Positions 1,086 to 51,929 of a stretch of 64,000 nucleotides of DNA are shown here, one piece after another. The stretch comes from Saccostrea cucullata. Lineage: Eukaryota. Each line of letters begins with the position of its first letter. The first letter of the stretch is position 1. The notes beneath the pieces were generated by a model. It did no database searches, was not told the DNA's origin, and saw nothing but the letters and a program-made list of their open reading frames with translations. The position numbers and the translations under genes are program-made. The stretch covers positions 248,001 through 312,000 of the forward strand of contig NW_026930709.1 of the NCBI RefSeq assembly GCF_032062105.1. The letters are read 5' to 3'.

Positions 1086-2720
1086 CACTTACTCAAAAGT
1101 TAACGACCACCAACTTTGATAAGAAAATTAATTTTCAAAGTAAAAAAATATTTTTGATTGAATAAATTCAGATTTACTAGTCAACCAAATGATTATTTAT
1201 TATTTGTTTTTATGTTACATCAATATCTCCATTCAAATATTTGTAAAACCGTTTTCTTCAAGGTCACCAATGCGTGTTTTAACAATTCACTTTTCAATGC
1301 AGTCACATCTTTGTTTGCATGAGCTTAATTGATAGAAAAAAAATGTTATAAGTTCGTGCAATCATGCCTCGTCGAAAACTATCGCAACTGGAGTGGTAAG
1401 AACTGGAATGAAGTATAGGAGGGTTGGAGATCACTTACATGTCAGTCACACTGTAATTTTGCGTCTGGTACAGCGGTGGAGAAGAACTGGGGGTGTATAA
1501 GAAGCTACAAGATCTGAAAGACCCCGAAAGACTACAGAAAGTAAAGACAGACTTCTAAAACGAATAGCTAAACAGAGTCCTTTTGATACAGCAAACACGC
1601 TGAGAAGCAAATGGAACAAGCTGGAATCAGCAGAAGTACAGTTAACAGAAGGCTAAATAAGGAACGGATGAGATTATGTCGGCCAATAAAATATCCGCTC
1701 TTATCCCAGAGACACAAAGAAGCAAGATCACAATGGGCATAACAGCATAGGAGATGGAACAATTGGTTGTGGCAAAGAATATATACATTGGTCAGATGAA
1801 AACCGATTCTTGCTGCACCCGGTAGACGGCCTGGTTCGGGTATGGAGACACCCAAATTCTGCATACAAACAACAACAACAACAACATGTGTTGGGAACAA
1901 AGGCGTTTTGTGGAGGCGGATCAAAAGTTTGGGGATGTTGCTATTTGTGGTGTAAACTGGAAATACATGTACACATACTTGATGGCACCTTAACTGCTCA
2001 AAAGTAAAGAGACAATATACTTAGCCCATTAGTTGTGCCTCATTTCGATGATCATTCATTAGCAAGTCAATCTGTACTAATGAATGACAACGCTAGACCT
2101 CAACGGGCCTGAAAAGCTGAAGACTATCTTCGCTAAGGAGCCGTTGAAACTATGCCCTGTCCCGTCATGCCCCCAGATATGAACCCAATTGAACATGTGT
2201 GGGATTATCTTGGTCGTAGAATTAATCAGAGAATCCCAAGTTGTAAAAATTTACAGGAATAGAGAGACGCATTAATTAAGGAATTGAGACAGTTCCTCTC
2301 AAACCTCTTAAGAAGACTTGTCCACAGTATGGGAAGGCGTGTAAAAGAACTGTACAAAAGTAGTGGTGGACACACACATAATTAGGCCTATATATCTATG
2401 CTTATAAAATGTTGAAAATTGATGACTCTTTAAATGTCAATAAAGTTAAACATGCTTATTGCTAGCAACTTTTGTCAAAAACAAATTAAAGTGAAACTTT
2501 AAATTCTACATTTTATGACTTAAATTCTTTTTTGGAAAATTATCATTTGCGTAAAAGAGTTTAGTTTACAGAAGATTTCGAAACATGCATTGACTAAGGA
2601 AAATATAGATCTACTCAGATTTTAAACCAAATATTAAATAATTAATTTGATTGGTCTAAGAGAATGAAATGTTAAAAATGTTCACAGAAAGATTGATGAT
2701 CCCTAACTTTTGAGTAAGTG
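1086..2720 (+). mobile_element. Full-length but inactivated Tc1-family (DD34E) DNA transposon
   Basis: Perfect 17-bp TIRs CACTTACTCAAAAGTTA (1086 onward; ending 2720) flanked by TA on both sides. Transposase remnant from ATG 1364 to ~2385 with WSDENRF, NDNARP and PDMNPIEHVW motifs; D-to-E spacing counted as 34; C-terminal SGGHT. Several stops and frameshifts. Confidence 0.93.
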
Positions 2721-2818: not shown

Positions 2819-5800
2819 TTAACAGCTGTAATCACCATATAGTATACTTCTCGCAGGATTGATCTGAACAACGCCAAAATATGAGGCTTCTGTGTTCGTA
2901 TAGATGAACGTTGGGTCTCCAATTGGCCTTATCATAATATAGTCATCACATTCAAGTTTAAACATCCCCATATGATTCATTGTGTCAAATGGATGCTCGC
3001 CCTCTCTTCTATCGTAATATGCCTGACCTCTGTATTACAAAACAATTAAAGCAAAGTGGATTAATGATATAATAATCATATTTTTTTTTAAGAATTGTCT
3101 ATGTTTTTTTCAACAGGGCATTGACCTCGGTACATTATGTGCTTCTTATCTGAAATCTGTGTCAGACAACAGGTCAGGTTTATTTACTTGTTACATAATG
3201 TTGGTAAATATACATTGTTAGGAATTACAAACCTATTATCCTGCGTTATGTAACTTTTTATCAAGGTCTTTTCAGTTCCATTATGAACCAAAACTGTTTC
3301 AAATCCTACAGATGGCTCGTACCTGTACATTAAAACATACAAACAATATTTAATAAACGCAAAATTATGTAGACAAATTTTGAAGCAGGCTTATTCAGAG
3401 AACTTAGTTACATTTATTGAAAACTTCTAGTTTTAAGATGAAATCTTTCTGAGGAAATTTCTATATTTATAAATGGCTGTTTGTTAATATTAAGAAAAAT
3501 AATCCCGTAAGTTAAATCAGCAAATGAAATAAAATCGAGGGGAAAAGACTAAAATTCTCTTTTATATTTACTTAAGATTGAAATAGATGCAAGCAGGAAA
3601 TTTCTGTAAACAAGACATATTTGAGATGACTAGAATTTGTTATGAATTGAAACTGCTTTGCAAAAAGAACACTAGCGTATCTTAAAGCAGACACATATTT
3701 GTAAAAATATAATAAATAATTGAATCGAGTTGATATTCTTAATGTTTCTTCCTTACTGTCTTTAAGGTTGTGTGATGGATTGAAAATCCAAATTACACTA
3801 TGCTATGATTACACAAACAGTTGAAAACCTTGTTTATTCTCCCTGGTTTTCTATTAATCAATGACCACAAATATGTACATAATTTTTTTTATTCTAAATT
3901 TAATGAGTTTGAATATTTGTGTTTGTTAAATTGTTTCCAAGAAAAAAAATAATCCCATCAACCATGAGTAATGGTTTACACAAATTATGCATTTATCACT
4001 TGAAACTACAAGTGTAGTTGAATCACTTCAAGTGGCCCTCTTCTGTGAAGTATGTGAAAAATTGTTCATTTGAAGCTGTTACTTTATTTTTAGATAAAGT
4101 AAACAAATAATCATATTATCTTATAGCAACTTATCTAAGTACCAAGATAGTAATGGATAGTAGCAACCTTAATTATATCTACCCTTGCTCTGGACCGTTG
4201 ACTGCTACTTGAGCATATACTAAATATATTCCTGGACTGCGAACTTTGATAGCTACGGGCATACTATAGGCGTTATCTCTGATGTAGTCAAAAGTGGAGG
4301 AATATATAGACTCCGGATCACTCCATCTAAAGCAGTGTTTCCTGTTGAAGCACCCATCTAAAAAATAAAGCTTGTTAGTATTGATGACAAACCGACAACT
4401 CTCTTGCATGTATAAGTACATGTGTATATATCAAGTACTTAAAAGCTTCCATATGGGAAATTTTCTCTTAACATATCGGAGAGGTCTTCATTTTCATGGC
4501 ATTTTTTGAAATTGAAATCATCTAAAGAAAAATTGCATCTTTTTGAAAAAGAAATTAAAAGTATAAGCAATTAAATTGAATCATACCAATGTTGTTGACG
4601 GGAGATTTCAGGGTATCTTGAGTCATGGACGCAGACATTGTTAAGTGGACGACCTTTTTCATTATTCCATCTTCAAGAAAATTGCTAAACTATTATGATT
4701 TTAAACTAAATTTAAAACCAAAATCCTTATAATTCTAATGCATCACTTTATAGCAACGAATTTAAGAAAATAACACATGAAATGTGAATTGAATATCAAA
4801 AGGTTTACCCTCCAAGTTTCGAATTTTAGTATTCTCCAATCTTCCTGGAAAAAAGAAAGAAATAATTTATTTTAGACACAAACCACTGTTGAAATTCTAC
4901 TACCGGTATTTTAAACAGAGGCAAGCTTCTCACACATCAGTTGATGTTGCAGGGATTTCAACAACCTCGTTCAAAGTCAATATTTGGAAATTCAATGGTG
5001 GTTATAATGACTTTCATAATAAATTTAACCTATCTCTGGTACTTCTTTTGGTTGGCTCGTTTTATATCACTTGTAAGGCCTTTTTTGTAATAATATTGAC
5101 TACGGCAAGTGCTATCTACTTGATCAATACGTAGAAATCACGGGGGATGCCTACTCCTCTCCGGCAACTGATCCCACCTCCGGATTTCTCAGGGGTTCCT
5201 ATTCATGCCCTGATCGCCTATTTGTATTGTTTGAATTGTTAAAGGTTTTTATGTGATACCTACCTTTCAATACTAATTTTGATTGAATTTTTATAATCAA
5301 GAAATATAAAAGGAACATTTCATACTCAGATTTCTTTTTATTTCAGCTAAGTCTGCCCGCACTTCAGTTCTCCAACGACCTGAAATTATACAATAAAATT
5401 AAGGAACTGTCTACAAAATGTAAAGGAAGACGGAACCTAATTACAAAAGGACGGACTATTTAAAAAAAACTGATATTAAAGCAGTTTATTTAAACTTATC
5501 ATATTTTTTTCTGAAATCTTTGTTTACATTATAGTAAATTACAAATTATCAAATATTGAAAACTGAAGATTGAACCTGTATATCTAAACCCCATTGAATT
5601 CTTAATGTCTTGTGAAACATCTTTGAAGAAGTATCCCCATGGGTATCGTATTTTTCATGTTCTATATGAAGCCGCATGATGGAACATATAGAAGTTAACA
5701 TTTCCTAAAGAAAATAGAACCTTGTCTTCATGTATCTCCTTGTTTCTAAAATGTTTTGCAGTCCAAAAAAAGTTGTAATGCTAGTTTTTTTTTCTTTCGA

Positions 5801-7590
5801 TACCTATTTTACGATCACTGTTAGCATTGTTTCGACGAATATGGTACATGTAAGCTAAAAAATGGAACTTCTATTGTCCATATTCGGATATGATAAAGAA
5901 ATGTTTGAAATGTTGAACCGCATGTACTGAATTTTGACAATGAGCCTCAGAACTATCATATTACTCATATAAAGTAATTACCATTTCTTTTCTCTCTTCT
6001 GTATACAGGATTTCTCTGCAAGAAGAACAATTCTGTTAAGGTAGGATTCTTCTCTGGTTTCTGACTAGATGAAACATTCAAAGTATATTTGCTTATATGT
6101 CTTATATATTTAGGTGCAAGGGATTTACAAGACCACATTTTTCTCTCCTCATTTGAATTGTACAACTTTAAATAGAAATGGTAAACTGCGCTTGAAAACT
6201 AGCAGGGACTATATTTTTGGCAGAATGGTGGCGTATGAAAATATCTTCTTTTCTGCCTCTCAAAATTATTACAGAACAATGAATTTAGTTATAATTTTTA
6301 TACAATCAAAGACTTCAAGAAATTTTCAAATGTAAGTTGAATCAATAATAAGGGACTAAACTTTCAAAATATATCAAATAAATATGATTTTTCAAACAAA
6401 CTAGAATTATGTTGGCTTTTAAACGCTTCCAATCAAAGTACAGATATGAACCATTAATCCATGAAAAGTATTTTTTCTCTCTTAGTAAACGGTCAAAACT
6501 TTGTTTTTGTATCATTTTGTATATTTAAAAGACTACTTTATTGTATGTGAAAATAAGAAAAAGTTAAATATAGGAAGCATCTGAAAGTAACTTATATATC
6601 CTTAAAAATTAAGAAAACAGAGAAAATTCGGATTAGCCAATATCCAGTTTAGTTAAATTATTTATGAAAATTTGGTAATATCATGCTACAGACCCGATAT
6701 AGTAATATCTTTTTATGCAAAAAGAACAATCTTTAAACTTTTGAAAGAGAAGTAGACATCATATGATTGGCAACAGTATTTTTTTTATTCTTAATGGCAA
6801 GGAAAAAGATAATGACCTTGACCTGACCTTGCCTCTTATATGAAACGGTCAAATTTATTTTCACTGATACTATGACTGACTAATATTGTCTTCTTGATTC
6901 TGTGAAAATTTCATTAACTTTTAAATACAAGAAAGATGAGAAGAATCCTACCTTAATCATTGACATTACTTCCTCGCAATCTTAGCAACAACCACACAGA
7001 AGTCTCAACAACACATAGTGTTTATTTCATTTTTTAATAGATAAATTAATGATAATATCATAATAATGGGGATCTTTGAAAATAATGCAAGCAAGCTGAA
7101 TGTTATAATAATGAAAAAGGGTTAAAACTACGAAATAGTGATAAATCTCAATACATATACCGGTATATGAACAAAGCAACAAACATCCTCAAGAATTCCA
7201 GAATACAAATGAACATTTACAAGTATCTCTGCCATCTTTTTCTTTCATTTGACAGTTTCTTGAATCCCCAAGAAGCGTAATACTTACGTTGATTTCAGAT
7301 GGTTTCTTCTGCCCATATAAGATATAGTTAGATTCAAATAAAGGCTTTTGTGCCAAATTTGCATGAGATTCATCAGAAATTTGCAGTCGTTGCAGTGTTT
7401 TTTCCAATTCATTTGTTTGAATAATCAAATAAGTTACAGCTACTGACAGGAAAACAACCGCAGCTCCAAGTACTTTGATGCATGTTGATAGGTATTTCTC
7501 ATGGCTGCAATTTGCACCGTGTTCAGATTTTTCCTGAATCGGCAGACACAAACACGTGCTTTCCGATTTCGGTAAACAATTGCACTCCAT
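2819..7590 (-). CDS. TNF-superfamily ligand TNF-A (type II membrane protein, ~328 aa, 8 coding exons)
   Basis: Exons (minus): 7288-7590, 5982-6015, 5326-5379, 4809-4844, 4587-4670, 4183-4357, 3233-3322, 2819-3029. All GT-AG, phases 0,1,1,1,1,2,2, 987 nt open. TM segment VLGAAVVFLSVAVTYLII, coiled stalk, furin-type REKR. THD motifs KKVVHLT, IKVRSPGIYLVYAQV, GMFKLECDD, SYFGVVQI. Confidence 0.9.
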
Positions 7591-7598
7591 TTAGAATT

Positions 7599-7720
7599 GG
7601 GATTTTCCCATTTTCAGCCTACATCAAAGTTTTGGTTTCGCTCAGCGTTATATGAAGTATGCTATTTTACCCACTTTGAAATTGTGGTAATTCTTAGGCC
7701 CGCCCTCATGTCCCGCCTCT
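7599..7720 (-). promoter_or_regulatory. Putative TNF-A proximal module: NF-kappaB site plus paired GC boxes
   Basis: GGGATTTTCC(C) at 7599-7609 fits the kappaB consensus GGGRNWYYCC, just upstream of the ATG. ggcccgccctcatgtcccgcctct at 7697-7720. A homologous arrangement lies upstream of TNF-B. Confidence 0.6.
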
Positions 7721-9134
7721 TTTGTTAAAATCTGTTCTACATGTAAATTCCCTCTTCTTATAAGGTCGTTTCAAATGAATGGTTATTTGTAAATATTTTT
7801 TCGGCAGTTGTCTATAAATATACTTGAAGATTTAAATATACATGTACCCTTGAACTCAGCACATAAACCTGCAATATCTCGGCGAATTCTGTAAAGATTT
7901 ATCAATATATAACCTCGATACTTCTTTGCCTGAATTCTTTACGTCTCACTTAGAAATATACCGTTTAATTGGAATGCCCCTGGTAGTCGGTGCCAGAAGC
8001 TGAATTCCTTTTAAAGAAAGATACTACCAAATTCAAATACTAATTCAACTAAAAAAGATTGGCTATTCCGAATTCCTCTCTCTATTTTTTTTAAAAGGGA
8101 ATATTATACATTTAATGCATGATAGTGAGGGAAATATGAAGACTTATTCAGCCAAGAAAAATCATATTCCCCGAGGGCTTCGCCCGAGGCGAATATGATA
8201 TTTCTTGGCTGAATAAGTCTTCATGTTTCCCGAAAATTCATGCAATGAATTGTTTATTATACCGAAACAAGCAAAACCTTTTAAGTACGGGTCTCTGTAA
8301 GAATCAGACAATATGTGTATAAAAGTGAATCACGAGGGTTCTCAGAATTGGATGATTTTACACACATAGGTTTCTCTTACACTATGAACCACTTATGTAA
8401 AATGAAAATTATTTTGGGTACTGGTTACTATGGAAACATGGTCAAAGAAATTTTCCCTAGCAACCGATCAATTTTCAATGTGGATGGGCAAATATATCAC
8501 TAAACTTAGAGGCTTGAAATTGAATGTGAATATTACCAGAGGGGTTCTTAAATAATGTTATCATAAAGATAAACATTTCAAGTGATAAAACCATGTAATA
8601 CATAGAATTTTTATTTTAAGATATTTCTTTTACGGGCAATGGAAGATATGCATGTTTTGCATTTTTTGCTGATTCAGCATTTTTGTTAATTTGGGCAATT
8701 TTCAAGGCCATATATCTCAAACTTCTGGCACAATACAAAAGTATGGTATATTTTACATAAAGGCAGAGGAATATCCTTTTTGGAATTTAAATTCAAAAAC
8801 GTGTGTTTTTTAATATTTACAATCGGTTGCCTAGCAACAAAAATGGATGTTTTGATTAAGAGAAAGAGACAATTTGTCAAATATGCGAGTTATTTACGGA
8901 ATTAAATCTTATCGATGGATAACAAAATCAATTTTTAAAGTAAAAACATATTTCTGAGACTTCTTTATGAATTCAGGAATATTTTGCAAATACTAATCGC
9001 CATAGCAACAGAAAATTCCCCATAGTAACAAAGAAAATAAATCAACTTTTGACACGAACTCATATATGTTTGTAAAGATTATTCAGTGTTTGACAGACCA
9101 CAGTGATTTAAGAGCCTCAGTACATTTTTTGTAC

Positions 9135-9960
9135 TTTATTAGTCACCAACCGGTGAAACTGGAAGGCTATAGGTTTCCTCTGAGTCTGTCCGTCGGACTA
9201 GCTGTCCCCGTGTCTGTGTGTAAGTCTGTCCTACTTGGGTTTCCGCACTTATTTTCTGAACGCTTGAAGATATTGAGCTGAATTTCGGCATGTGAGTGTA
9301 TCTTGGTGAGTTACAGATTAAGTTTGAATTTCGTTACGCTTCATTGATTTTTGACAGATTTATGGCGTTTTATTTTTTTTCATAATTGTTTAAGATCGGG
9401 TTCGTGCTGCGCTAAATTCCAAAGGTCAACATGGTAAACCAATCGTAACTTCTCGGGCCTTTCCGACTAGCGGAAAAACAACCTCGAATGTATTAACATC
9501 ACCGGATGTTAAAAATTTATACATTTCCCGTTTATTCAAATACAGGCTAGACGGATTTAGAAGTTCCTTCTATAGTATATTTTAGGTGATATCATTACAT
9601 TTAATAAAGTAAAGCTCCATATTCCACAGATAAAAGTTCTCAATGCATTTATTTCAAAGATCGTGAAAAAGGAGGGTTGTCATGGCGTCTACCATATACA
9701 TTCGAGGTTGTTTTTCCGACCTCTGACGGAAAGACCCGAGATGATGCGATTGCATGGTAAACATGAAGCCAAAAGATGTTGAAAAAATAAGTTGAATTTC
9801 CGTTATGTGTTTTATTTCTTTTTTAGATTAAAGTCATGCATAACCTCAAAATTTTAACATCATGGTCATAACTTTTGCATATTATAAAATGACATTCTAG
9901 AGAAAAGGGGGAACCCGGTAGGGGACATGTATTGTTATGCAATAATCTCAGAATGCTTGT
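9135..9960 (+). mobile_element. HINE/Helentron-type (Pearl/DINE-1-like) non-autonomous element
   Basis: 5' TTTATTAGTCACCAACCGG with 3' subterminal inverted partner CCGGTAGGGGAC, a GTCT/GTCC microsatellite, a core unit (gaagatattgagctgaatttcggcatg), and a 3' short hairpin ending CTTGT. Confidence 0.7.
9440..9752. mobile_element. MITE with 10-bp TSD (Mutator-like), nested in the HINE
   Basis: ~55-bp imperfect TIRs (caatcg...cggaaaaacaacctcgaatgtat). Perfect direct repeat catggtaaac at 9430-9439 and 9753-9762. Confidence 0.85.
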
Positions 9961-10321
9961 AAGGTAAACCCATGGCAATAACATTGAGCATGTAGCTATC
10001 ATGAAAAGTTATTAAAGCTCCATATCATCTATAATGACCTGAACATTTATATAGGAGCTGTACATGTGGTATGTAGTGTCTCTGAATTTCTTAAAACTCC
10101 TTTAAAGTCTCTGACATTGTTACTAAAAGTTATGCAAAAAATTGGTTGTTATGTGTCATTGTTACCATGGCAACATGTCATAAATTTTGAAAAAAATATG
10201 GCATATTTTAACATGATAAGAGTGTTATAGTTAACATTTGTACCTAAACAAACAAGTGGCAGGGTTCCAGGCCATAAAAGTTAGACGAGTTATCATTCGA
10301 TGTCAGTCTCACAGTTACATG

Positions 10322-10987
10322 TAGCTGCAGATCTGCAGATTGGACCGAATTATCTTTGAAACCAAAATGGCAGTATAAATAAGCGAAATGTCCGATGATT
10401 GCAATATCAGGGCCAGGAGGATTATTAACAACAATTATGAGGAATATTTAATTTGTTGTGGAAAGAGTCAAAGAATATGTTAGAAACACATGGTTAGTAA
10501 TATTTTGAGATTACAGCTTTAAAAACATGGAGAAATAAATCGAGAACCGAGCGCATTATTTTGTGCGCAATAAATATACAGTTTTTTCAATGGGTGGCTC
10601 TGTAGCTCTCCGGTCTATCAATAATTTTTTTTCGGAGAGCTACAGATCTGCAGCTATCTCTACAACTGATAAACTCACTTGACTGAAATTCTTTGTTAGA
10701 TTGCTAAAAATTCACTTCAAGCGAGTTTATTGCCTGTAGAGACAACTATAAATGGTTGGGAGGTAGATAATATATATATATATATATATATACATTGGCT
10801 ACAGAATGTGTCTAGAAGAAGGGAATGAAAGGTATTTGATTAACCAATGCTAGAAAAAGGAGAAATTCTCCCCAAAAGCGCGCAAGAAATATTGCGCCGT
10901 AAATTGCACCTTTTTCGCATTACGGGATCTGTGGCGTTATGGTCAAAGACAAGTATATAAAACCATAACGCTACAGATCTGCAGCTA
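10322..10987. mobile_element. TAGCTGCAGATCTG-ended MITE (composite copy), 9-bp TSD
   Basis: Termini tagctgcagatctg / cagatctgcagcta; TSD agttacatg / aattacatg. Extra internal terminus at ~10656. About 300 bp shared with 15728-16017. Confidence 0.75.
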
Positions 10988-12819
10988 AATTACATGTAAA
11001 GGTTGAAATACATGTACAACAAAATATTAGAGAAAAGAGACTTGAAACATTTTCCAGGGACGAAACCACAACAAGCCTTCAACTGTAAAATATGCATGTT
11101 TTTATTTCATCCTAAATTTAAAAAAAAAATCACATTTCTATATAACTCACTCAGATGATCAATATAAAGACATTGTTTTGGTCATAATTAATATAGATTT
11201 TCACATTTCAAAATTTTCAAACTTTATTCTTCCAAAAATAGCAGTGCTAGGGAATTAAGCAGAAAAGAATATGCATCAATTAAATTTGAATCAAAAGGCC
11301 CAGGGACCACATCCCTCACCTGAGCACCGTAGCTGGGATCAAAGCAAAAATCAGTTTAGCCTTGGAAAGATTAAATGTATTTGTGGTCCCAACTACCCCT
11401 AAAAGGGAGGGGGTATTATGTCTTATTTCTTAAGTGATACATGTATCCAATATAACTTAAGTTCTTCCATGCAGAAAAGTATTATTTAAGGTGAGTCAAA
11501 TAACACGTTTCTTGATTAAAGCTGAACACTACTCGTAAAAGGGCATAGTCCGCCATATTTCCTGTTCTTCAAAGCTCTTCCTACAACCCATATATAAGGA
11601 GCAGATTGCTTATCACTTCAATGTATTTTGCTGTAAAGATCCGATGAGTGTAGACGTACATCTCACATAGCCGTGCTACTCGGTCGTGATGAAATTATTA
11701 AAGTTAACGTACTTTTTCCAAAACAGGACAAAAGTATTATGCAAAATACAGGTCGATACATCATTTACAAACAGAAAATGCACATAAAAACAAGGAATAA
11801 ACGCAAAAAATCTAAAACCACACAAGGAGTACTACATGTCGGCCACGCATTTCGAGTGCGCAATCGGGTGTAACAAAATCATGTCACATGTCACAAATGC
11901 AGGTCCAGGGCCGGTGTGCCGGTTACCCCCCCCCCCCCTCCGTTTGAAGATTTTGTACATGTACAGTAGTGTATATAAAATTTATATGTCCACTATCCTA
12001 AAACAAGGAGAAAACATCTTTCATTTGTGGACCCCCACTAATGCCTTGCCCTAAACCCACTGGAGACTTCAGTGCAGCCCAGGACCCCCTGCCTTCTACT
12101 GCCCCAACCCCTTCCCAAACTCACCCAACCACAAAATTCCTTGATCGACTTTCTTGAATTTTCCTGTTTTTTTTTTCTCAAGATAGGAGCATTTGCCAAA
12201 TTTCAGTAAAGTAAACACTCAGACAGCTAATGAAACATGCAAATTTATGCTGAAGTCAGAAAATCTAGTGGGTACTGGTATTTTAAATAGTGCATGAAGT
12301 AGAAATCAGATTTTGCAAATATAAAAAAAAAACATTTTTTTTTCATAAAATTCAAACATTTGAAAATGAATTTATTCTTTGAAAATTAAGGTACATTGAT
12401 GAAATTAGGCATTCTATTTATTTCATCTGTTTAGTTCAGTTTATTGAAGTCAAGAGACATATATCTCACAATTATACATGTTTAATAACAAATATAACAT
12501 GTATAATAATGAGTTTAACATGCAACATGTATAGTACATATTATATTTTCTATAATGTATAAACAAATGAAAGGCGCTGTTCTTGCTGCACTCGCTAGTT
12601 GCACAAATTTTCCTAGATTACATAATTCTTTTTTATTCTGTGTAATAATGACTAAGTAACTGTACTAATTTGAGGGCATTTGGTCTTCGGGAGTTTAGCA
12701 CATATGTACATTGTGTTACAGTTTCTACTGAACATGTACAATTAACTTTGCTAAGCCTAGCCAATGAAATTCATTTTTAATATTTGTTATACAATTTTTA
12801 GTGTATTGATGTATACGTA

Positions 12820-13888
12820 CAGGGTGTTTCACAATATATGTCACACATCTAAAGACAGATAGATAAATAACAACAAAAGCTACATACACATTTTATATAT
12901 CATTTTAATCGGCATATATTCAAAATTATTTTTTTAGTCAGAAGTATCCAAAATCCACCACCTCAGTTACTATGGCAACAAATCCTAAAATGTTATTCTC
13001 GAAGTGTTTTCCCAACATTGTCCTAAATAACTTAAGAGACTAATGTTTATAAATTTCTGATCACTGTTTTGTAAGTTTCCCAAGATTTCTGAGACTTTTC
13101 TTGTTTTATATCTGGCTTTTTAGAACCCCCAAAGTGCATATCTATTTTTATTTAAAGTTGCATTTAAATAAATGTTTCGTTTCAGAACTACCGGTATGTG
13201 TTAATTGGTGCCCACTTCTTTCACTCTTCCTTTCAGTCAATCTTGCAAACTTTTACCCCGGTTCTGAATGTCATTTGACTTTAAACGTTGAACTCTTGTA
13301 TGCAGACATACTTAACTCAAATTTAAGATTTCGAAATACTCTTGATACACTTACTGGCATTGTTACAACCCATCTTCCTAAACTCAGATGTGACTTTCAT
13401 GAGGTTTTCTCAATGATTGACTTCACTCTGATATTGTTCTCATCTCTTCTTGAATTTTTGGGGGTGGGGTAGGGTGGGGTGAAGAGGAGGCAAGTTTAAC
13501 TGTCTTTCATCTTTACATTATAATATAATTTAAACCCTCTAATTATTCTTAATAGAAGAAAAGTAAACAGTAATTTCTGGTCTAGTTATTTTTTATCATC
13601 ACCCCCTGTAAAATACCGGTATATAAAATATCGTAAACGGTTCTTATAATAAAAAATTACAACAAAATTTTGCTGCAAGTTTTACGCAATTTTGAGAATA
13701 ACTGAAATTATGACATCACTGATTATATCATCAGTTACTTCCTGGTTTATTATAATTTTCCCGATATTTTGCAACATAATAATTTTAGATCAATATGCTT
13801 AACTATCGTGTTTTGGTATTTTTGGTATCATGTTCGATATTCAGATTATGCCCATTTAGATGTGTGACATATATTGTGAAACACCCTG
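12820..13888 (-). mobile_element. Internally deleted Tc1/mariner element
   Basis: Perfect 34-bp TIRs CAGGGTGTTTCACAATATATGTCACACATCTAAA with TA TSD. Frameshifted minus-strand remnant (ENNIRVKSIIEK...AYK/RVQRLKSNDIQNR) resembles a mariner-type transposase N-terminal region. Confidence 0.85.
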
Positions 13889-14042
13889 TATATACCTATT
13901 GAATACATCAAAACAACCCTCTTTTTAAATAACACTATATCATTGTAAGTTACAAAAAACAGTTTGATTAATCTTTTGAAATAAATGCTTTTCAAGTTTA
14001 AAACACACACACACACAAAATTACAGAGAATTTGTACACTTC

Positions 14043-20184: not shown

Positions 20185-23100
20185 TTAGTTTGAATGTAAA
20201 GGATCGCAACTGTGGTCTTCATATTCAAGATTAGTTGCTGGATTTACTTGTTGAATACCAAAATATGAGATGTCACTCCTATAAGAAATCTCTGTATCTC
20301 TCAGCAGTCTTACATATATCGCATCATCGCAGTAGAACTTGAAGGTTCCCTGAGTAAGGACTGTGTCGACTGGTTTACGGTTTATAGTATGGTAAGAGCG
20401 ACCTCTGGAGGGAATAACATATGTTATGAAATACTAGTATGAAGATAAAGGGGACAGTAATATAGCTCAAAAGTCCATTTAACGAATACAAATCAGTAGC
20501 AAAGCAAAAACAGAAGACCCTTAAAAACATGAAGGTGGGATCAGATGTATTTCCTGTTGACCTGTCACACCCGCCATGTGCTCCTTGTTCTTTAAAATTC
20601 AGTATGTAAATAATGGCCTAAGAATAATAGGACACCGGACAGTATTCTACATAATGATAGATTGTTTATGCTGGCAAGGTCATTCTATCGACATTATGTA
20701 CAAGGAGAGAAAACAGTTTGGCTAACTTGTTCCATACCATTTGTCAGGCCTTTGTTTTCATAATAAAACTGTATGAAGTGACACACGAATTCATGTCCAC
20801 CACGAAATGTAAAGTATTAAATACATAACTACTCAACAATTCTTCATCCACGAATTAATCCAAACCGAACCAAGAGTTTTTACTCAATGTTCACTTATTT
20901 GTTTTGTTTATAGGATTTTTTTCCCGACGAAAATATGTGATTTTACAGTAAATTACGGATAGTTCCGTTTACCTGATTGATAGAAAGGGCTCATTGCGGG
21001 TGTGACCTGTCAACAGGGATGTTTACTACTCCAAGGCATCAGATCCCAAACCTGGAATTTCCACGGGTCCGAGTTTTATGTCCTGTTCACTTATTTGTTT
21101 AAAGATTTCAATTCATTATGTTTATACAAAACTCTTGTGAAGATCATATAGTACCTTTGATCCTGGGTGACAATGCCTTTTGATAGAGTATTTTCGCGTA
21201 GTCCTCGAACCTGCACAATCTCAAATCCTACGGTTGGGTCATAGCTATTGCTATAAAAATGAATTAATTTGATAAATGATTGTATTTTCGTGTTCGTCTC
21301 AAATCAATATATAAAATCTAATGAATTGAAGAGTTTAAAAAGAAATGTTTAATACATGTAAGATACATAATTGTATTTTATACCTCAACTCTGGCCCACT
21401 AATTGCAAGTTGTGCATAAACATTATATATTCCCGGGCTGGTAATTTTTATTGCTACAGGCAAGTTGTACCCATCTTTAATGAAATTGAACGAGTCTCTG
21501 AATTCTTCCAGCGGATTGTCCCATCTCAAACAACCTGCGTTGCTTGAACAATTAGCTAAAGACAAAATTATACAAATGAATGTATTTTGTTGGACTACAA
21601 GAGATTATCCACCTCCATTTATGTTATTGAGTTATTCTTTTATTATATGGATGTCTCACCAATGTTATCTACCCTACTGTACAATAACGTACTATCCATG
21701 GTGTTACTCATGGCCAGATGCACCACTCTCTTTAAAATGGCAGCTGCATGAAATAAACGAAAACTTCTAAAAGAAGCATCCTTGTTTTAAAGAATAAACA
21801 GGAAATATAAATTCAAAGCAATGTATGGATAGAAGGATGACTGTAATTCTCAAGAAAGAATAAAGCAGAATTTAACCATATGAATTTAGAAGGCTGGGGG
21901 TCAACAAATTAACCACAAATTAACCACCAGATTTAACTTATTTTTTTTTGATGCGGTATCTTAAGCTGTCAAGTATCAATTGGCAAAGAAAAAATTCATA
22001 CATTTTAGTTTTAAAATTTGATCATTTTTATATATCTTTATATAGAGCTCTCCTTTAAAGGAGATCGAAATAGTCTGAAAATGGCTGCCACCCCCAGCCT
22101 CTTTATTGAAGCGTACCTTTAATGATCTTAATGGTACAGTTAAGCTCTGCAAATCGGTTTTCAACTGCTGTAACTCTTCTCCTTAACCCTGAATAGAACA
22201 ACAGATAAGTCCTTTTACAAAATGTATGTTTGTGTCTCATCATTGAGAAATTTATTACAATTCAAAATATACCTAAAGTAAACTTTTGTATAGAGTTTTT
22301 TTAAAGAGGTTTTACCGTTTGAATTCCAGATACGAAAAATAATTATTTTCTGTAAAAATTATATTTCCGAAAATTTTACTTTTTGAAGCACATGTGCCCT
22401 TCATTTTTTGTCGGAAATACCTTTTATTTCTTTTTTTAATACACCATCACAATTGTTGTGGGTACAAATGATTTTTGTTCAATGGGCTAAGTGTTTCCAG
22501 TCCCTCAACCTAACTTTAACTTGGGATTGGAAAAACAATGGATGTGATAAAAATCACATCTAACCATAAACCAATATATTTTTAGCACGTTATACATGGA
22601 TAGCTATTGCATGATTTTACATCTTTGTTAATAAATGTAACTTATTCGACCGCCAGTATCATGTAAAGGTATTGTGATGTCATTTGAAGTAATAATTGAT
22701 ATAAAAAATAATATAGGACCAAAAGTCACTGCATTAAGGATAAAACATTTTCAAACAAGTTATTTACATAAGATAATTTTCGTAATTTTCATTGGCAGAA
22801 AAAAACTTCACGTGATTTCTTCCTTCTTTGATACATACATTTTAGCGCGTTCGCGGAATATAGTATCACATGAATCACACTTGAAGAGATCTTACGAAAG
22901 TACTGTACATGTGACATCATTGTGTTGGAAGCATGTTTTACCACTGTCATATTATAACAGTCAGCTAGGATTGCGGCATATTATTTACTTTAGCATCTTT
23001 ATAATATCTAAATATGGACTTCAGTAAACAGTTAATTCTTGTCAAGTTGTATTGACCTAGATACAGAAAATGTTGAGACTTTGCAATCTCGGTGATTATT

Positions 23101-40804: not shown

Positions 40805-43800
40805 CTACGAAAGAAAAACAACCCCAAAGAACGTCTTGTCTGGGCTAATTGTTACAGCCGTTTCTCTGGTAATCACTTTAATCTGAACTGTGTCCCCCTT
40901 CTTTAAATAATGCAAGCCCATCATATTGCACGTCTTCTCCTTTGCATTGAAGAAATCCGATATTTCATTTGGTTCATATTTGTCAATACTGTCGGCACAG
41001 TGAAAGATTCTTTTGTCCGAAACAAAAATTCCGAAGAATTCTCTAGGATCCTTTGTAAATTTCTCTATCTACCAAAAGAAACAAATTTTCTTTAAATCAA
41101 TTCAACTTAATGCATGGTATCGATGCAGAAAAACTAATATAAGCTTAATTTTTTCCAGTCATTTATTCTCTAAAAAGGATTATGAAAACAGTTGTCTTTC
41201 AATCGCATTTCACTTTCACAGAAAATTAAATTACACTGGTTTTCAATCTTCTTCTGTTGTATTAAAATTTGATTATCCTAATGACCATTCCTCAAAAGGC
41301 CCGATAGGAAAGAACATGAGAATACTTGCAAATTTTGTAGAATATATTTCAATAAGATAAATTCTTGGTTTGAAAATTAACAATCTGAATTTGCATAAAC
41401 ATTATTAATATTATAGTAATGTTTCAAGTGAAACAATACACATAAAAATTCATTTTAAAATATGCACACATATATATTTTGGAAAAAAACCCGTTTATAT
41501 AAAATAACTTTTAAAGATATATTTTCTTCATATATCCTTATACAAAATTAGGTTTCCATTCCACTTTTTAAAAATGGAGGTTATGCCATAATTTGGGTCT
41601 TTCAACAATCAGTTGAAATGTCTATGGGTACCCGTTATTAGTAGAATATTTTTGTATTCAAGCAAAATTTATCCAAAAACTTCATGAAAAAAAGTTCCTT
41701 GCTTTGGTCTTCAATTCAACATTTGAATATACCGATGACGTTTTATTAAGTGTCAATAATCATTTTCATTCTTACTTTGATTTGATACATGTCTTTGATT
41801 GATTGATTGATTGTATGTTGTTTAACGTCCTTTTGACATTTCTTAAAAGGAAGTAAAAGATACCACAGAGTTAGACATATATTTTTTTTATTTGAATATT
41901 TCACACAAAAAGACATTGATAGTAACCCAACAACAAAACTTTCAGATAAACACGATTAGTTCAACTTTTCTTTTGTCAGCTTGTCTTAATATTTATGTAA
42001 CAATATATGCCATTATCAACTAAGGTGGACTCTATGCCTTTCAGTTGATGTGTATACTCCTCGTACGAACGAACTCTAAAACGACGCAAGCTACTAAGCA
42101 TTGACAAATACGTTGACAAAACAAGGATCTCAACAGTCTCGTTTAAAGTCATCAGACTCATCAACATTATATGGTGGATACAATGCCCTTGTTAACAAAG
42201 GCAATCTATTATTAACGCGAATGTTGAATCATTTTTAAATAAAAAGTCGTTAGGCCATTGTTTTCGCACTGATTTACATTTGCCCTGGCCAGTCACGACA
42301 AGGAGCACCTGCCAGGACTGACCAATCGAGAGGAAATGCTTACTCCTCCATGGTACCTGACCCTATCCCTGATGGTTTAGAGGTCTTGGTTTGTTATGTT
42401 CCAAACTTGTATTGTTCCAATGAACTTTTGAGCTTAATTAATTACTATTCAATATCTACAAGTTTCATCAGTCTAGATTGTTTTAAATGAAAGCTGTCCA
42501 TTAAGATAAATACGTGGTATTTAATGCACCAGGTTTAAACTGATACTTTGTTGGAACAAACCTGTATTCTTTGTAGCTAATGGGCTTTTACGAAGAGCGC
42601 TGACTTTTACAGTTGACGGCATACTTTTACACTAGGAAAATGCACAGAAGCTCTTTTACGATATAACATTAGCTCAACATTCAAATAAACGAGAATAACG
42701 GATTATTTCAATGCAAATATAAGTTGTCCATGATTTAGCTCAACATTCAAATAAACGAGAATAACGGATTATTTCAATGCACATATAAGTTGTCCATGAA
42801 AAAAACGACAACCAACCTACCCTCAACTCACGGCCTTCACATGCAAGTGCCCCTAACACTCTATGATCATTAACAAGGTTTTCTTATGTGTTATCAATTC
42901 TGTACCTCCGTACATGATACAAGTTTAAATGTCCAAGTATGCCGTCAACTGTAGAAGTCATTGCTTCTCGTAAAAGTCCACTAATACTTAATATTAAATC
43001 ATATATATGGATAAAAATACATGGAGTTCAGAAGATATTTGACAACATTATAATTTAACGAACATACTGCCAGAATGGGTGGACTTTTTCAAACAACAGG
43101 GAATAGTTTAATTTCGCTTTAATAAGGTACCATACACATACCAATAGTTTAGTTTATGTTACAAAAAATAACTTTAATAAGATACCATACACAGTTACCT
43201 GAGCATATAAAAGATATAGTCCTGATTGTAGCACTTCAAATGATTCGTGTCTATCCGTATTAAGTCTCATTATGGTGTTTTGGTACTCATTTTTCATCCA
43301 GACAGCTTCTTGAAAATATGGAATAGCTTTGTATTTCTCTGTAAATGTGAAATTTAAGATAATGAATTTTATAAGAATCAACTTATTATATTGCAGTTTG
43401 TTCAAAAACTTTGATAATTATATTTTTTAATTTGATTCTTGTTCAAGAATTTCCATATATCAAAATAATGATCAAAGAAACTTACACAGAATGAATATTA
43501 ACCATGGTACAACTCTGAGATGAAATTGATATGTTTTCTTTTTTCCTAATGTTGATACTAGGGAATTATCTTAAAATACGTCAGATACAAACATAATTAT
43601 TGCGTATTTATTCATAAAGCGTGAAAAACCAGAAGTCTCTGTCGAGACTGAAGCTCTACTGGTTTGTACTTATAGCAAAGGAAGAGAAAAGTTCTTAAGA
43701 AGTTGGGAATTGAAACTTTACCACAGCAATAAAAAGAATAATGATCCTTGATTAAGTCTCTTTATGTTCTTAGTATAGTCTACTTGCATGCCACATTATA

Positions 43801-46800
43801 TTAAAATCAGATCAAAATTGTAGGAGGAGTAGCATTTTGAGATTTTTTAACAGAAATTTCTATTTTTAGTTACCATGGCAACACCGTTAATCGAAATCAA
43901 AAACCAATATACAGAATTACGTATCTTAGTGTAGTCTACTTGTGTGCCAAGTTATATTGAAATCAGACCAAAACTGTAGGAGGAGTAGCATTTTGAAAGA
44001 ATTTCACAGAAATTTCTATTTTTAGTAACAAGGCAACACCGTTCATCGAAATCAAAAACTGATAAACAGAATTATGTATCTTAGTGTAGTCTACTTGTAT
44101 GCTAAGTTATATTGAAATCAGACCAAAACTGTAGGAGAAGTAGCATTTTGAAAGAATTTCATAGAAATTTCTATTTTTAGTAACAACGGCAACACCGTTA
44201 ATCGAAATCAAAAACCGATAAACAGAATTATGTATCTTATTGTAGTCTACTTGTGTGCCAAGTTATATTGAAATCAGACCAAAACTGTAGGAGGAGTAGC
44301 ATTTTGAAAGAATTTCACAGAAATTTCTATTTTTAGCAACACGGCAACACCGTTCATCGAAATCAAAAATTGATATACAGAATTAAGTATCTTAATGTAG
44401 TCTACTTGTGTGCTAAGTTATATTAAAATCAGACCAAAAATGTAGAAGGAGTAGTATTTTGAAAGAATTTCACAGAAATTTCTATTTTTAGTAACCACGG
44501 CAACACCGTTCATCGAAATCAAAAACTGATACACAGAATTATGTATCTTAGTGTAGTCTACTTATGTGCCAAGTTATATTGAAATCAGACCAAAACTGTA
44601 GGAGAAGTAGCATTTTGAAAGAATTTCACAGAAATTTCTATTTTTAGTAACAACGGCAACACCGTTAATCAAAATCAAAAACCGATACACAGAATTATGT
44701 ATCTTAGTGTAGTTTACTTGTGTGCCAAATTATATTCAAATCAGACCAAAACTGTAGGAGGAGTAGCATTTTGAAAGATTGTTTACAGACAGACAGACAG
44801 ACGGACAGACAGATGGACGGACGACGGACGCATTACTATCGCATAAGCTCTTCTGGTCTCTGACCAGTAGAGCTAAAAAATTACCTCGACTCCAAAATGT
44901 TCTGTTTGAAGGGCAATAGAAGTCTTCTTTACTTAGTACACAATCTACAATGTTACAAATTGACAAAAAGGTAAATGTAGCTCTAAACATTGCTTAAAAT
45001 AGTAGAGGTAAGATCAAATAAAAAGTTAAGGAATGAAACTTTAACCTTGCGGAGGAAGAGATGATTTCCACTTTAGAAGTTTTTAATTTCAGATGCAAAC
45101 TACTTGACTGGATAATTATATAGAAACCACGGTGATTAATTGTAGTTGAATTATATCCACCTCTCGCGGTTTTGCTTCAGTCATCGTGCTTTTACATGGC
45201 AGACAATCTAAACCAATCTCCGTATGTGGCATACTTACCTTTTACATTCGGTGGACTGGTAATAAAATGGGCTGCTTGAAATTTTCCCTAAAAACAGAAA
45301 AATCGAAATTCTTATAAAATATTTCTTTTAGAACATGTTTTAGTGAACAGGGCCACATGATGAGACACCTATTAGTAACATTAGTAATACTGCTTCATAC
45401 AGGTTGGGAAAAAATCAAACAGACCTCCAAACCATCAGAGATAGGATTATGTTCCATAAACGTTTAGTACGAACACGGATATAGCGAATTCACCGATATA
45501 ACGAAGTTTTTCTGGGTCCCCGTCAAAATTCTTAACAAATCTTTTTAAAATTTTACGGTTATAACGAACTCTGATATAACGAATTTACGGATATAGCGAA
45601 CTGATTTTAGTCCCGTTGAGGTTAAATATAATGAATTCTACATCTTTTATAACGAACTTTCAAAGATTTCAAAATTTGAATAATGGAACTGACTTTATTT
45701 TCTCTCAGCATTTGTATATAAAATTCAATTCATAATAAAACCTTAGTTATCGAAGGTATGTTTTGTAATATTTGCTTCCCCAACATATTTGATAGTAACA
45801 CTTGAAGGAAAACATTCATATTGCGAATTCGCTATATATGGTTATACGAATTCGTTATACGGATATAACGAATTACGGATATAGCTAATTAAATTCACAG
45901 GTCCCCAGGACTTCGCTATAATCGTGTTTTACTGTATTATTTAGAAAGAATTTATAAGAAATAACTGCCATTTCATTCAAGCTTATAAAATTCAAACATG
46001 CATTTTTTTCTCTTAGTTTCTGCATTTACGTTATAGTCGCTTACTCAAATAAAATCTGTATATATATACTGAGTTTGTATACTAAAATTGAAATTAACTT
46101 ACAGGGGGGCCTTGTATGCCAGGAATTCCTGAAAAAGAGTGAAACGTGAACAACTGAAAATGTGAAAAATGTTTACTATAGCTAGACTGCAGTGATTTAT
46201 AGATAATTATGTTCTTTTGAGTTAAAGTACAAGTTAATCACTTGCGTTTAAAGTTTCCGAGTAAAAAATGTTCTAATGGGAGTTTAACAACAAATTTAAT
46301 TTTTAATTTTAAAAATAGAAATGCAGTTTACTTTTTTGTAATATTATAGAAAAACATGCTTATAACGAAGCGCCGGTAATGGGCGATTTTACTACGTCAT
46401 ACATGTATATGTAATTCGTTGTCATCATATTCTTTATATGTTTAAAACCCACGAAGAATGAAAATTTCTTCGCTATAAGCGTGAAACCATTATAATCGTG
46501 TTCCACTATAAGCGTGATTTAATATACTTTCAACTTGCCTTTTTCTCCTCGGGGACCCGGAGCCCCTGGTGGACATTTACATCTTCTGCGTTTTCTGATT
46601 TTGCTTCTTCTACGTTTGTTCTTTCGGTTTTTCTCTTTAAAAAAAAATACAGGAATCTTATTCGCATATTTTACTTTTATGACAAGAACAAGAGTATTTT
46701 AAGTTCCATAACTCTTCCATATCTCTTTCCAACACTACGCCTTTACATTTTCCCTGTCTCTTGTAAGTTTCTTAAAAATTCCAAAGCTTACAATAACTAA

Positions 46801-48988: not shown

Positions 48989-51929
48989 TCACGTTTTGAG
49001 CAATATTGCCCCAAAGTTTGTATTTTCAGGCTTGAGTATGACTGCTGTATTTGCTGTAAGGAATCTGATGGAGAGCTGACTACCCTGTTGTAGAAAGAAA
49101 ACACCGGACACACTACAGGTTTTCCCTTTGGAGTACATAAAAGGATTAGAAGGATTTGATCTAACGTAGTCGAGGCTTTCCCGGCAGTCCAGCTTACGAT
49201 TGCTGTCAATGTAGATAGCTACGTCGTGTGATGATTTTGTGGCCTGGATCAAAACCTGGAGTATATTAATATACGACAAAAAAGTTTTATACTGTATCAA
49301 GTAAAGAATGAAGGTTTAAATTATGGATGATACAGTATCAGAACTATAGGATTAGAAGTTATGGAATGGAAAACAGATTGTAGGGGAAAGGTCAGAAAAT
49401 TTATGAAACACCTGCAAATACTTAACAAAATAACAGAAAAAGAAAGGAATCATCAGAAAATTGAACCTGAAAAGAAGTACATTAAAACAGTCAAACTACT
49501 ACTAGTTTGTGGACTGGAGTTTAGAAGGGCTAACCTTTATCTGTAGATATTGATAATGTAGTATGTACTGATATGATTCGTAATCCATATTCACTTTCTA
49601 TTTACTGATAAAGGTAAGTGTCAAAAGCATCAAGAGATAAAGATGGGCGTAGAAAACTATTTCAAGGCAATCCAGTAACACAGTGCCAATGATCTATTAT
49701 TTTAATTATCAACAATACCAAAAAAAAAAAATCTTATTTACAGTGTATGTTATTTGGCTTAGAAAATAAGTGGAATTGCAGAAGAAAATAAAGATATGCA
49801 ATGCATGGTTCGTTTTGCAAGACAATTGTTCATTGATAAGAATTAAATTAAAATAGAAAAACTCCCTTCTTATTACATGTTTTACAAGAAAATGATAAAT
49901 ATCTACCATTGTAACTGTTAATTAAATGAAAATATCCTGGTAACTTAAACACTGGGATATACAGACTTTCCAGCTGGTAAAGTGCTTTTAAAATCAACAT
50001 CAACAAAGAGAAAAAAAGTCATGGGAGCTGTCACAAATTATAACGATTGGAGGATACAGAAACTGGATGCACATTAATACAAGAAACATGTAAGCTTAGG
50101 TTGAATTACGTAAGTAAACTCCAAATGATTAGCAAAGGGATGAAAGAGAAACTGAAGTATAAATTAAAATGGAAAAGAATCTGAAAGTTTACATTGAAAT
50201 ATTAAACTTCTCCAAATTGGACTAAAAAAAATCTTGCATCTTGTGTCTACAGTGTAGAATACGAGATCGTTCAAAACAGCAAGTTTACAATGACATAAGA
50301 AGAAACTTGTAATCTACCAAAATGGTACCAGATAAACCGAAATCTTACATTGAGATACAAAAGATGAAGGCCAGATTTGGTCACTGTGAAGGAACTTGTG
50401 TCTGCTTGGCTTTGTGAAAGGGGTTCAACCTCCTCAATATGTTGTGACTTCATCCAAGATGAAGGTCTGAAAAATTTGACTCCGTGTAGAGGATCTACAA
50501 AGAGTTTGTGGATAGAGTATACTACAATATAGATTCTAGAATGTGGAAACAATTGGAGGCAAAGGAAATTATAATGTATTGCTACAGCAGAGACGTAATA
50601 AGCTTACCATTTATCATAAATGTTTGGTTTGCACAGAAAGTCCCCGACCAGACGTAGCAGCAGGAACCTGGAAAAAAAGAGCTTCCTATGATTAATACAT
50701 TAAAAAAATCAAAAAATAGGATGTAAATAACGGTATGGTTTATTAACTCTCGCTGCTCTTAAAGAAGTTATTTTGATAATTTAATTTGCTTTTGACTTGT
50801 TGTTACGTAATGTTTAATCTTCATTATGAGATGCTTTCATACTGAACCAACCTTTGCATTTTATTCCTTGTTTCTGATAAATGTCGTGATACTCGTGTGG
50901 CACATAATGAACTGCAGTTACTCCTGAATTGACCTAAGACAGAGACGAAACGAAAACATTAGTAATAAATTTTCATCATAATTTTGTTCGGATTGAATAT
51001 GATTATCAGTTCAAAATTATCAGAAGATGAGAACTTACATCACTGAGTAATTCCAGACCTGAAAGAATAAAAAAGAATTACAATTATGCGATATCATTTC
51101 GTTATTGAAAAAGCTCGTAAGTTGTTTTTTTAAATAAATACTTATTGAAAACCAACTTAATGCAAAATGGAAAAAATCGTACTTGGGCCTCCAGACAAAA
51201 ATCTTTTCATTCCTGTGTTTTCTGAAAAGCAAAAACAGACAAATTGCTCAACTCTTTGAAGTTTTTCTTGCTCAGTTACTTTTGTTGTAAATAATTACTT
51301 TCATTGTATTTCATATACTTATAATACTTGCATCTTTCTTATACCCATTTCAGTCGTGAAACTTTTTTAAAAAAGAAAATACTTGGAAGCCAATTCAATA
51401 TTTTAATTATTTACGTTCTCACGCAAACTATTTTATGCTATCCGACTAGAAGCGCAGTATATACTTAAGTCGTTATTGATAATTATATACTGAACTACTA
51501 CCTCTGGTCAGCATATTTGTTCTATAACTATCTCCAGCAACTTCGTCTTGCATTCTTTCAAGATCAATAACTGACTTTTGGTCTATACTCTACAACAGAA
51601 ATGTGTATTAAGAGACGGTGTGCTTTGATGCATATTACAAAAAAAGAAATTATTTGAAAAATTGTTTTTCAAAATATAGAACAGGAACAAACCGTGATAT
51701 TCCAGTTGAAAATTTTTGTTGAACTTAAGATTCTGCTCAGATTATTCACTTTTTCCACTACGTTTTGCACTTCGTTCATCATCTTTATATAAATGACAAG
51801 CAAACAACTGCAAACTCCAATGACCATCATAAAAAGTAATATAACAGCAATTTTAATTCCAGCTTTCTTTCGATACTTTTTAGACGTATATGCCATTTCA
51901 TTTAAGGAATAAACCTTGCAATTTGTCAT
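48989..51929 (-). CDS. TNF-superfamily ligand TNF-E (paralog of TNF-D without collagen, ~312 aa, 8 coding exons)
   Basis: Exons (minus): 51693-51929, 51502-51589, 51183-51221, 51039-51058, 50852-50933, 50608-50667, 50349-50494, 48989-49255. Phases 0,1,1,0,1,1,0; 939 nt. TM IAVILLFMMVIGVCSCLLVIYI. THD motifs TAVHY, FTVTKSGLHLLYLNV, LDCRE...KTCSVSGVFFLQQG, TNFGAILL. Confidence 0.87.

Follow-up and report, generated by a model that had tools for sequence, protein, structure and literature searches.

A 64,000-nt window of the Saccostrea cucullata genome (contig NW_026930709.1, positions 248,001 to 312,000; coordinates below are counted from its first letter) carries five tandem genes of the TNF family, all on the minus strand. 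We refer to them as TNF-A (7590-2819), TNF-B (24101-20185), TNF-C (~34090 to 27214), TNF-D (~47415 to 40805) and TNF-E (~51930 to 48989). A preliminary description of this DNA, made from the letters of the sequence, proposed that the TNF homology domain (THD) of TNF-A and TNF-B defines an atypical subtype with its own set of cysteines and a C-terminal tail. Our analysis shows that the two are a real, conserved structural variant of a known family, with a plausible, predicted disulfide.

The 328 aa of TNF-A are encoded by 8 exons, separated by introns of the GT-AG type. Exon 1 (7288..7590) encodes the cytoplasmic N-terminus with an MEC motif and a type II transmembrane helix (helix 34-80 in the model of an ortholog), and exon 2 (5982..6015) is a 34-nt microexon that holds the furin-type site REKR and whose junctions are present in RNA. 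The stalk helix (model helix 113-145) is encoded by exon 3 (5326..5379) and continues in exon 4 (4809..4844). Exon 5 (4587..4670) carries strand A (KKVVHL) and the first half of the long AA′ loop and ends at a phase-1 intron, after which exon 6 (4183..4357) provides C173 (4352-4350) and C179 (4334-4332) ahead of W182, followed by strands A′ to C; its end, at a phase-2 intron, falls within the CD loop. The cysteine-free exon 7 (3233..3322), bounded by phase 2 on either side, supplies strands D and E and the motif S.ITQD.R. Exon 8 (2819..3029) encodes strands F-H with C286 (2950-2948) in the FG loop and a 13-residue tail (2860-2822) that ends in C328, directly before the stop. All seven introns were joined in each of four RNA runs from a closely related source (two raw-read sets, with 1-6 reads per junction, and two contig sets). 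The last exon is 99% identical to a Saccostrea cucullata protein and 89% identical to one from S. echinata.

The TNF-B model (7 exons, 314 aa) was built from the sequence together with the S. echinata ortholog P0101. Its exon 1 (23853..24101) encodes the cytoplasmic part and transmembrane helix, and exon 2 (23533..23581), with boundaries taken from the ortholog, the furin-type site RERR. Exon 3 (22117..22188) encodes the stalk helix with an extra cysteine, Cys117 (LNCT), and exon 4 (21660..21743), which lies outside the interval covered by the preliminary description, encodes strand A (KRVVHL). C154 (21550-21548), C160 (21532-21530) and strands A′ to C are on exon 5 (21384..21555); strands D and E are on exon 6 (21155..21250), for which a second possible acceptor exists at 21244. 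Exon 7 (20185..20404) provides the FG-loop C266 (20331-20329), the tail with C307 (20208-20206) and the stop. A shorter exon 3 lacking Cys117 was dropped because P0101 shows the same LNCT stretch, and other acceptors for the last exons of TNF-A and TNF-B break the frame. We note that in Saccostrea TNF-B Cys117 falls inside an N-glycosylation sequon and makes the count of base-side cysteines odd.

TNF-A and TNF-B thus share one layout: a hydrophobic type II anchor, a furin-type site (REKR and RERR, where cleavage is predicted), a stalk helix and the THD. As the preliminary description had it, their THD is split by two phase-2 introns, which we place in the CD and EF loops, and neither intron is found in TNF-C, TNF-D or TNF-E. 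A third, phase-1 intron in the AA′ loop leaves strand A on the upstream exon and is common to all five TNF genes of the window. Where strand C ends, TNF-C, TNF-D and TNF-E are interrupted by a phase-0 intron; TNF-A and TNF-B have none there. The last two THD exons of these three genes (27214..28029, 40805..43338 and 48989..50494, respectively, minus strand) each encode a cysteine pair between strands E and F; no cysteine occurs between these strands in TNF-A or TNF-B, again in agreement with the earlier claim.

The motifs quoted for the two proteins are present on the minus strand: CFNRKHCFRW (4352-4323) and CSSNAGCLRW (21550-21521), FKLECDD (2962-2942) and FKFYCDD (20343-20323). The CX5C before the A′ tryptophan is located in the AA′ loop of both proteins, but its spacing is not fixed; across 32 relatives with the pair it ranges over CX4-7C (CX5C in 19, CX7C in 9 and CX4C in 4). 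The FG cysteine does not, as had been proposed, take the place of the canonical glycine. When LECDD is aligned without gaps to TNF-C LDKGD, RANKL LRSGE and TL1A LQEGD, the cysteine falls one residue before the glycine, and the glycine position itself holds D, E, N, K or Y. The quoted tails begin at 2860 and 20244, with stops at 2821-2819 and 20187-20185, and in both proteins a cysteine-bearing tail does extend past strand H. Such an extension is not unique, however, as TNF-C has a 12-residue cysteine-free tail and a tail is described for Spodoptera Eiger in the accessible part of PMC6684607. TNF-A ends in its tail cysteine as described, but the stop directly after it is a local feature: the seven full-length A orthologs (P0002-P0008) extend 2-4 residues further. 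The THD of TNF-A and TNF-B contains an even number of cysteines, and the proteins are extracellular.

The AlphaFold2 model of the S. echinata A ortholog P0002 has a mean per-residue confidence (pLDDT) of 79.9, with values of 92-93 in the AA′ loop, 97 in the FG region and 59 in the tail. It is a TNF jelly roll, matching APRIL/BAFF with Z 16.7 and a root-mean-square deviation (rmsd) of 2.0 over 136 aligned residues, and EDA with Z 16.6 and rmsd 2.4 over 137; CD40L, TL1A and LIGHT score within 1 of the top Z. A B-type model (P0096; mean pLDDT 72.7, residues 286-292 under 50) is matched by VIA to TNF superfamily (TNFSF) structures with Z 16.0 and rmsd 2.0 over 136 aligned residues, and Foldseek matches both models to TNFSF structures at E 1e-9. 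Since solved TNF chains mostly stop at model residue 315-320, and Eiger at 323, C328 lies on a true extension. The Pfam TNF profile (PF00229) is passed marginally by the full-length proteins (P0002 at 24.1 and P0005 at 25.4 bits against a cut-off of 23); as single exons, TNF-A stays below the cut-off and TNF-B gives no match. The fold, the marginal Pfam score and the hydrophobic stretch in exon 1 of both genes as a type II anchor place TNF-A and TNF-B among the ligands of the TNF superfamily. For the TNF fold, the sheet order given in the accessible text of PMC8024323 is A′AHCF / B′BGDE.

To collect relatives, we searched 1.84 billion cluster representatives with a profile (65 matches) and made three word-index searches (7, 8 and 17 matches). 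Fifty-five proteins were aligned with the window TNF-A and TNF-B, and removal of P0020, P0025 and P0072 (missing or aberrant ends) from the 57 rows left 54 complete THDs. Both the FG and the tail cysteine are present in 16 of them, the FG cysteine alone in none, a cysteine elsewhere in a short tail in 4, and neither in 34. Over all collected proteins the FG motif occurs in 40, strand H is reached in 38, and 37 of those 38, many of them alleles or near-copies from about seven lineages, have the tail cysteine. It is mostly located at +13 (+10 in mussels), and most other tail positions vary. The carriers named were Saccostrea, Crassostrea virginica, Pinctada, Tegillarca, Mizuhopecten and Mytilus californianus.

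A distinct cysteine subtype conserved in orthologs is therefore borne out, with FG and tail cysteines in five bivalve families (37/38 complete sequences), but two qualifications apply. First, the label "atypical" is overstated. A missing E-F pair is a common condition: of 16 single-exon TNF matches in this genome, which include haplotype copies, none has the E-F pair or the FG cysteine. Second, the subtype was found in pteriomorph bivalves only, not across Lophotrochozoa. The motif suggested in the preliminary description matches 15 of 116 collected proteins, compared to 36 for a relaxed motif.

The simplest reading of the co-conservation is a disulfide from the tail to the FG loop. We assign a probability of roughly 0.6 to an explanation in which two intrachain disulfides, C173-C179 and C286-C328 in TNF-A (C154-C160 and C266-C307 in TNF-B), replace the E-F bond and stabilise the trimer, which would be shed with its stalk helix. 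TNF-A and TNF-B would be type II membrane ligands that are shed at the furin-type site with the stalk helix still on the domain and, as is usual in the family, would form trimers that bind a TNF receptor. C173-C179 would close a short loop just ahead of the A′ tryptophan, and C286-C328 would tie the 13-residue tail back onto its own subunit at the FG loop. In the TNF topology the C-terminus and the FG loop lie on the same membrane-proximal face, and the FG-tail bond may thus stiffen the end at which C-terminus, FG loop and stalk meet. The AA′ loop lies beside the receptor groove in TNF, TRAIL and RANKL, and the AA′ bond could fix this long loop there. The expected role would be in stability and receptor choice, with no new signalling principle.

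How the four cysteines are paired is addressed by the sequences that have lost some of them. Of 33 sequences that cover the loop, 32 have the AA′ pair, and most carriers hold all four cysteines, as would also be expected if an AA′-loop cysteine were bonded to the FG or tail cysteine. We consider such crossed pairing very improbable. The scallop protein P0017 has lost both AA′ cysteines while keeping FG and tail, and this loss as a pair divides the four into AA′-AA′ and FG-tail; P0101 conversely keeps the AA′ pair without the tail cysteine. The AA′ cysteines are also just 4-7 residues apart, in a loop modelled at high confidence.

The FG and tail cysteines might not be bonded to each other at all, but be free thiols, pair with a partner protein or the stalk cysteine, or simply reflect shared ancestry. 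P0101, with its FG cysteine and no tail cysteine, would fit this idea, as would the stalk C117 of Saccostrea TNF-B, a third cysteine on the base side, and a single origin of the group is compatible with the tree (approximately unbiased test, p-AU 0.36). We nevertheless regard it as quite unlikely, given that 37 of 38 sequences across five families hold both residues while neighbouring tail residues mostly vary, and that the tail length to the cysteine is 13 in every lineage except mussels. Unpaired surface thiols of secreted proteins are rarely so conserved.

The main alternative, unlikely in our view, is that the tail cysteine bonds the FG cysteine of a neighbouring subunit, such that three disulfides between subunits close the trimer covalently, or separate trimers become connected. 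The same FG/tail co-conservation would be expected, and the poor placement of the tail in both monomer models is what a partner on another chain would produce, although low AlphaFold scores of terminal tails often have other causes. A 13-residue tail can, moreover, fold back within its own subunit, with strand H and the FG loop ending on the same face. The tail of Spodoptera Eiger does reach the neighbouring protomer (PMC6684607, as far as its text was available), and the Eiger chain aligns with the model as far as residue 323.

Returning to the two intrachain disulfides, several observations weigh against them. Neither monomer model places the tail well (pLDDT 59 for A, <50 for the B-type), and in P0101, the S. 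echinata B ortholog, the tail cysteine alone is lost while the FG cysteine is kept, so that 1 of 38 sequences breaks the pair. The carriers form about seven lineages that may share one origin, for which reason the 37/38 counts are not independent events, and a Fisher p of 2e-10 for FG/tail co-occurrence carries no weight because the rows are related. Finally, co-conservation is identical for a bond within a subunit and a bond between subunits.

The remaining matches of the searches share a motif S..TQ..G on strand E and a D before strand F, and have no E-F pair. Based on these sequence features, we assign TNF-A and TNF-B to a wider mollusc-annelid "TQD" group of THDs. Names were looked up for 30 of the matches, and the TQD members among them come from gastropods, a chiton, an octopus, Dreissena, Potamilus, Solemya, Capitella and Owenia, with one tunicate match. 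The EF-loop intron may be common to TNF-A/B and this group, with two Bradybaena models differing by one residue in its position. A third cysteine arrangement appears here, consisting of a strand-D cysteine (C.H.T) and a GH-loop cysteine: among the 54 THDs (P0023-P0070 for this pair) 26 have both, none has a single one and 28 have neither. Counted over the 38 sequences that are not of the A/B type, the strand D-GH pair is present in 26, neither pair in 12 and the FG cysteine in 0; the carriers are gastropod and annelid TQD-type TNFs. The strand-D/GH-loop patch corresponds to the modelled binding place of single-CRD (cysteine-rich domain) receptors on Eiger in the accessible part of PMC6684607.

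With cysteines masked, oyster TNF-A and TNF-B grouped firmly (100/97). In our second tree, also with cysteines masked, the FG-tail set formed one clade in 62% of bootstrap trees (this is the tree of the p-AU value above) and was placed weakly beside octopus, Potamilus and Dreissena sequences; in the first tree, which had no single-exon paralogs, the set fell on one side of a branch in 0% of bootstrap trees. These trees contain no vertebrate rows, resolve neither the root nor how the TQD group relates to vertebrate classes and have long branches that meet, and 7 rows were omitted from the first and 11 from the second (fragments, near-copies, long branches). A more far-reaching synthesis would combine a clasp to the neighbour's FG loop that closes the trimer covalently with a third old TNF class ("TQD", with its own introns), within which molluscan lineages carry differing disulfides, FG-tail plus AA′ in pteriomorph bivalves and, for gastropods and an annelid, strand D-GH loop. 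We think this doubtful.

In the literature searched, we found no description of this cysteine set; Gao et al. 2015, on the 23 C. gigas TNF genes, may have grouped these genes before, and the supplementary trees of bioRxiv 10.1101/2024.07.27.603686 may include them. The available portions of PMC12367993 and PMC8995041 contain nothing on ligand cysteines, and relationships between invertebrate and vertebrate TNFSF members are described as still to be worked out in the accessible text of Marin 2020 (PMC7674686). TNF ligands are partly sorted by their disulfides, that is, by having an E-F bond or not, and molluscs add at least two cysteine arrangements that are tied to a distinct intron pattern. 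Cysteine and intron patterns can serve as markers for sorting the expanded mollusc TNF repertoire. Members carry no annotation beyond "uncharacterized", "hypothetical" or "THD domain-containing", and their Pfam scores lie near the cut-off; surveys can therefore overlook them. An inter-subunit bond, if true, would make these proteins natural covalently locked TNF trimers, useful when considering how stable ligands might be designed; an intra-subunit bond would make them a modest stabilising variant.

Several further features were noted in the relatives. M[ED]C occurs at the N-terminus of 24 of the 116 collected proteins, among them orthologs of TNF-A and TNF-B as well as scallop and mussel proteins, and at 7582-7590 in the window TNF-A; the window TNF-B has MEY. 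The Tegillarca proteins P0015/P0077 contain four AA′-loop and two EF-loop cysteines in addition to FG and tail, a count that, from the sequences, suggests two further disulfides. Fused gene models (P0009, which is M. gigas K1QMH9, and P0012 from Pinctada) combine a C-type piece with B/A-type pieces, arranged as in the window, suggesting that the C-B-A cluster predates the split of oysters and pearl oysters. Single-exon oyster TNFs (L004, L007) have a lone EF-loop cysteine (TQCW) in a TRAIL-like context; TRAIL has a zinc cysteine.

Elsewhere in the window, a polybasic stretch of TNF-D leads into a short collagen-like run (PPGAPGPRGEKG; 46630-46530, minus strand), and the same succession is part of the architecture of EDA. 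An intron of TNF-D contains a tandem repeat with a unit of ~155 bp (43762-44789). Between TNF-A and TNF-B lies a pair of inverted repeats (8280-9063 / 16754-17527; 784 bp, 95.7% identical), probably the ends of a DNA transposon, and intron 1 of TNF-A holds a high-copy repeat (6036-6957) with very high read depth drawn from elsewhere in the genome. A broken transposase-like remnant with a WSDE motif (~1340-2390, plus strand) is, we assume, Tc1/mariner-like. The TNF cluster is flanked by a minus-strand gene (58140 to ~53800) and a plus-strand gene (61434 onward), which from their translations we take to encode a BTB-kelch protein and a DM10/EFHC-like protein, respectively.

Among known TNF ligands, TNF-A and TNF-B resemble the EDA/BAFF/APRIL/TWEAK/Eiger class in the jelly roll, which gives the top structural scores (Z 16.7 and 16.6), the type II anchor and the furin-type site. 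This E-F class, into which TNF-C, TNF-D and TNF-E fit, is also marked by a phase-0 intron after strand C. TNF-A and TNF-B have neither the E-F cysteine pair nor this intron, and have two phase-2 introns instead. The E-F bond is described for Eiger, BAFF, APRIL, TWEAK and EDA in the accessible parts of PMC6684607 and PMC8024323.

With the TNF/TL1A/LIGHT/FasL/RANKL/TRAIL group, TNF-A and TNF-B share the absence of an E-F bond, and their best PDB sequence-profile matches are RANKL (E 0.002) and TL1A and LIGHT (E ~1e-9). A phase-1 intron interrupts the AA′ loop in vertebrate members of this group as it does in TNF-A and TNF-B, whose AA′ loop is also long, as in TRAIL and RANKL. The conventional TNF/FasL/TRAIL-like class is characterised by a cysteine in the CD and/or EF loop (a CD-EF bond in TNF and FasL) and, in vertebrates, by strands A′ to H on one exon, an arrangement also seen in the 16 TNF matches of the same genome. 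TNF-A and TNF-B, in contrast, have no CD- or EF-loop cysteine and spread the THD over four exons, with strands A′ to H divided. They also differ from this wider group at the C-terminus, where its solved chains stop at model residue 315-319 and have no cysteine-bearing tail.

Spodoptera frugiperda Eiger (PDB 6I50) is, like TNF-A and TNF-B, an invertebrate THD with a tail past strand H, and it aligns up to model residue 323 (Z 15.5, rmsd 3.8, 148 aligned). According to the accessible part of PMC6684607, it differs in having one disulfide only, the E-F bond C105-C121, and a tail that is held non-covalently, packing on a helix of the neighbouring protomer and touching neighbouring trimers in the crystal. 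The TQD group shares with TNF-A and TNF-B the strand-E motif, the D before strand F and the missing E-F pair; it differs in that none of its 38 sequences has the FG cysteine and 26 use the strand D and GH-loop pair.

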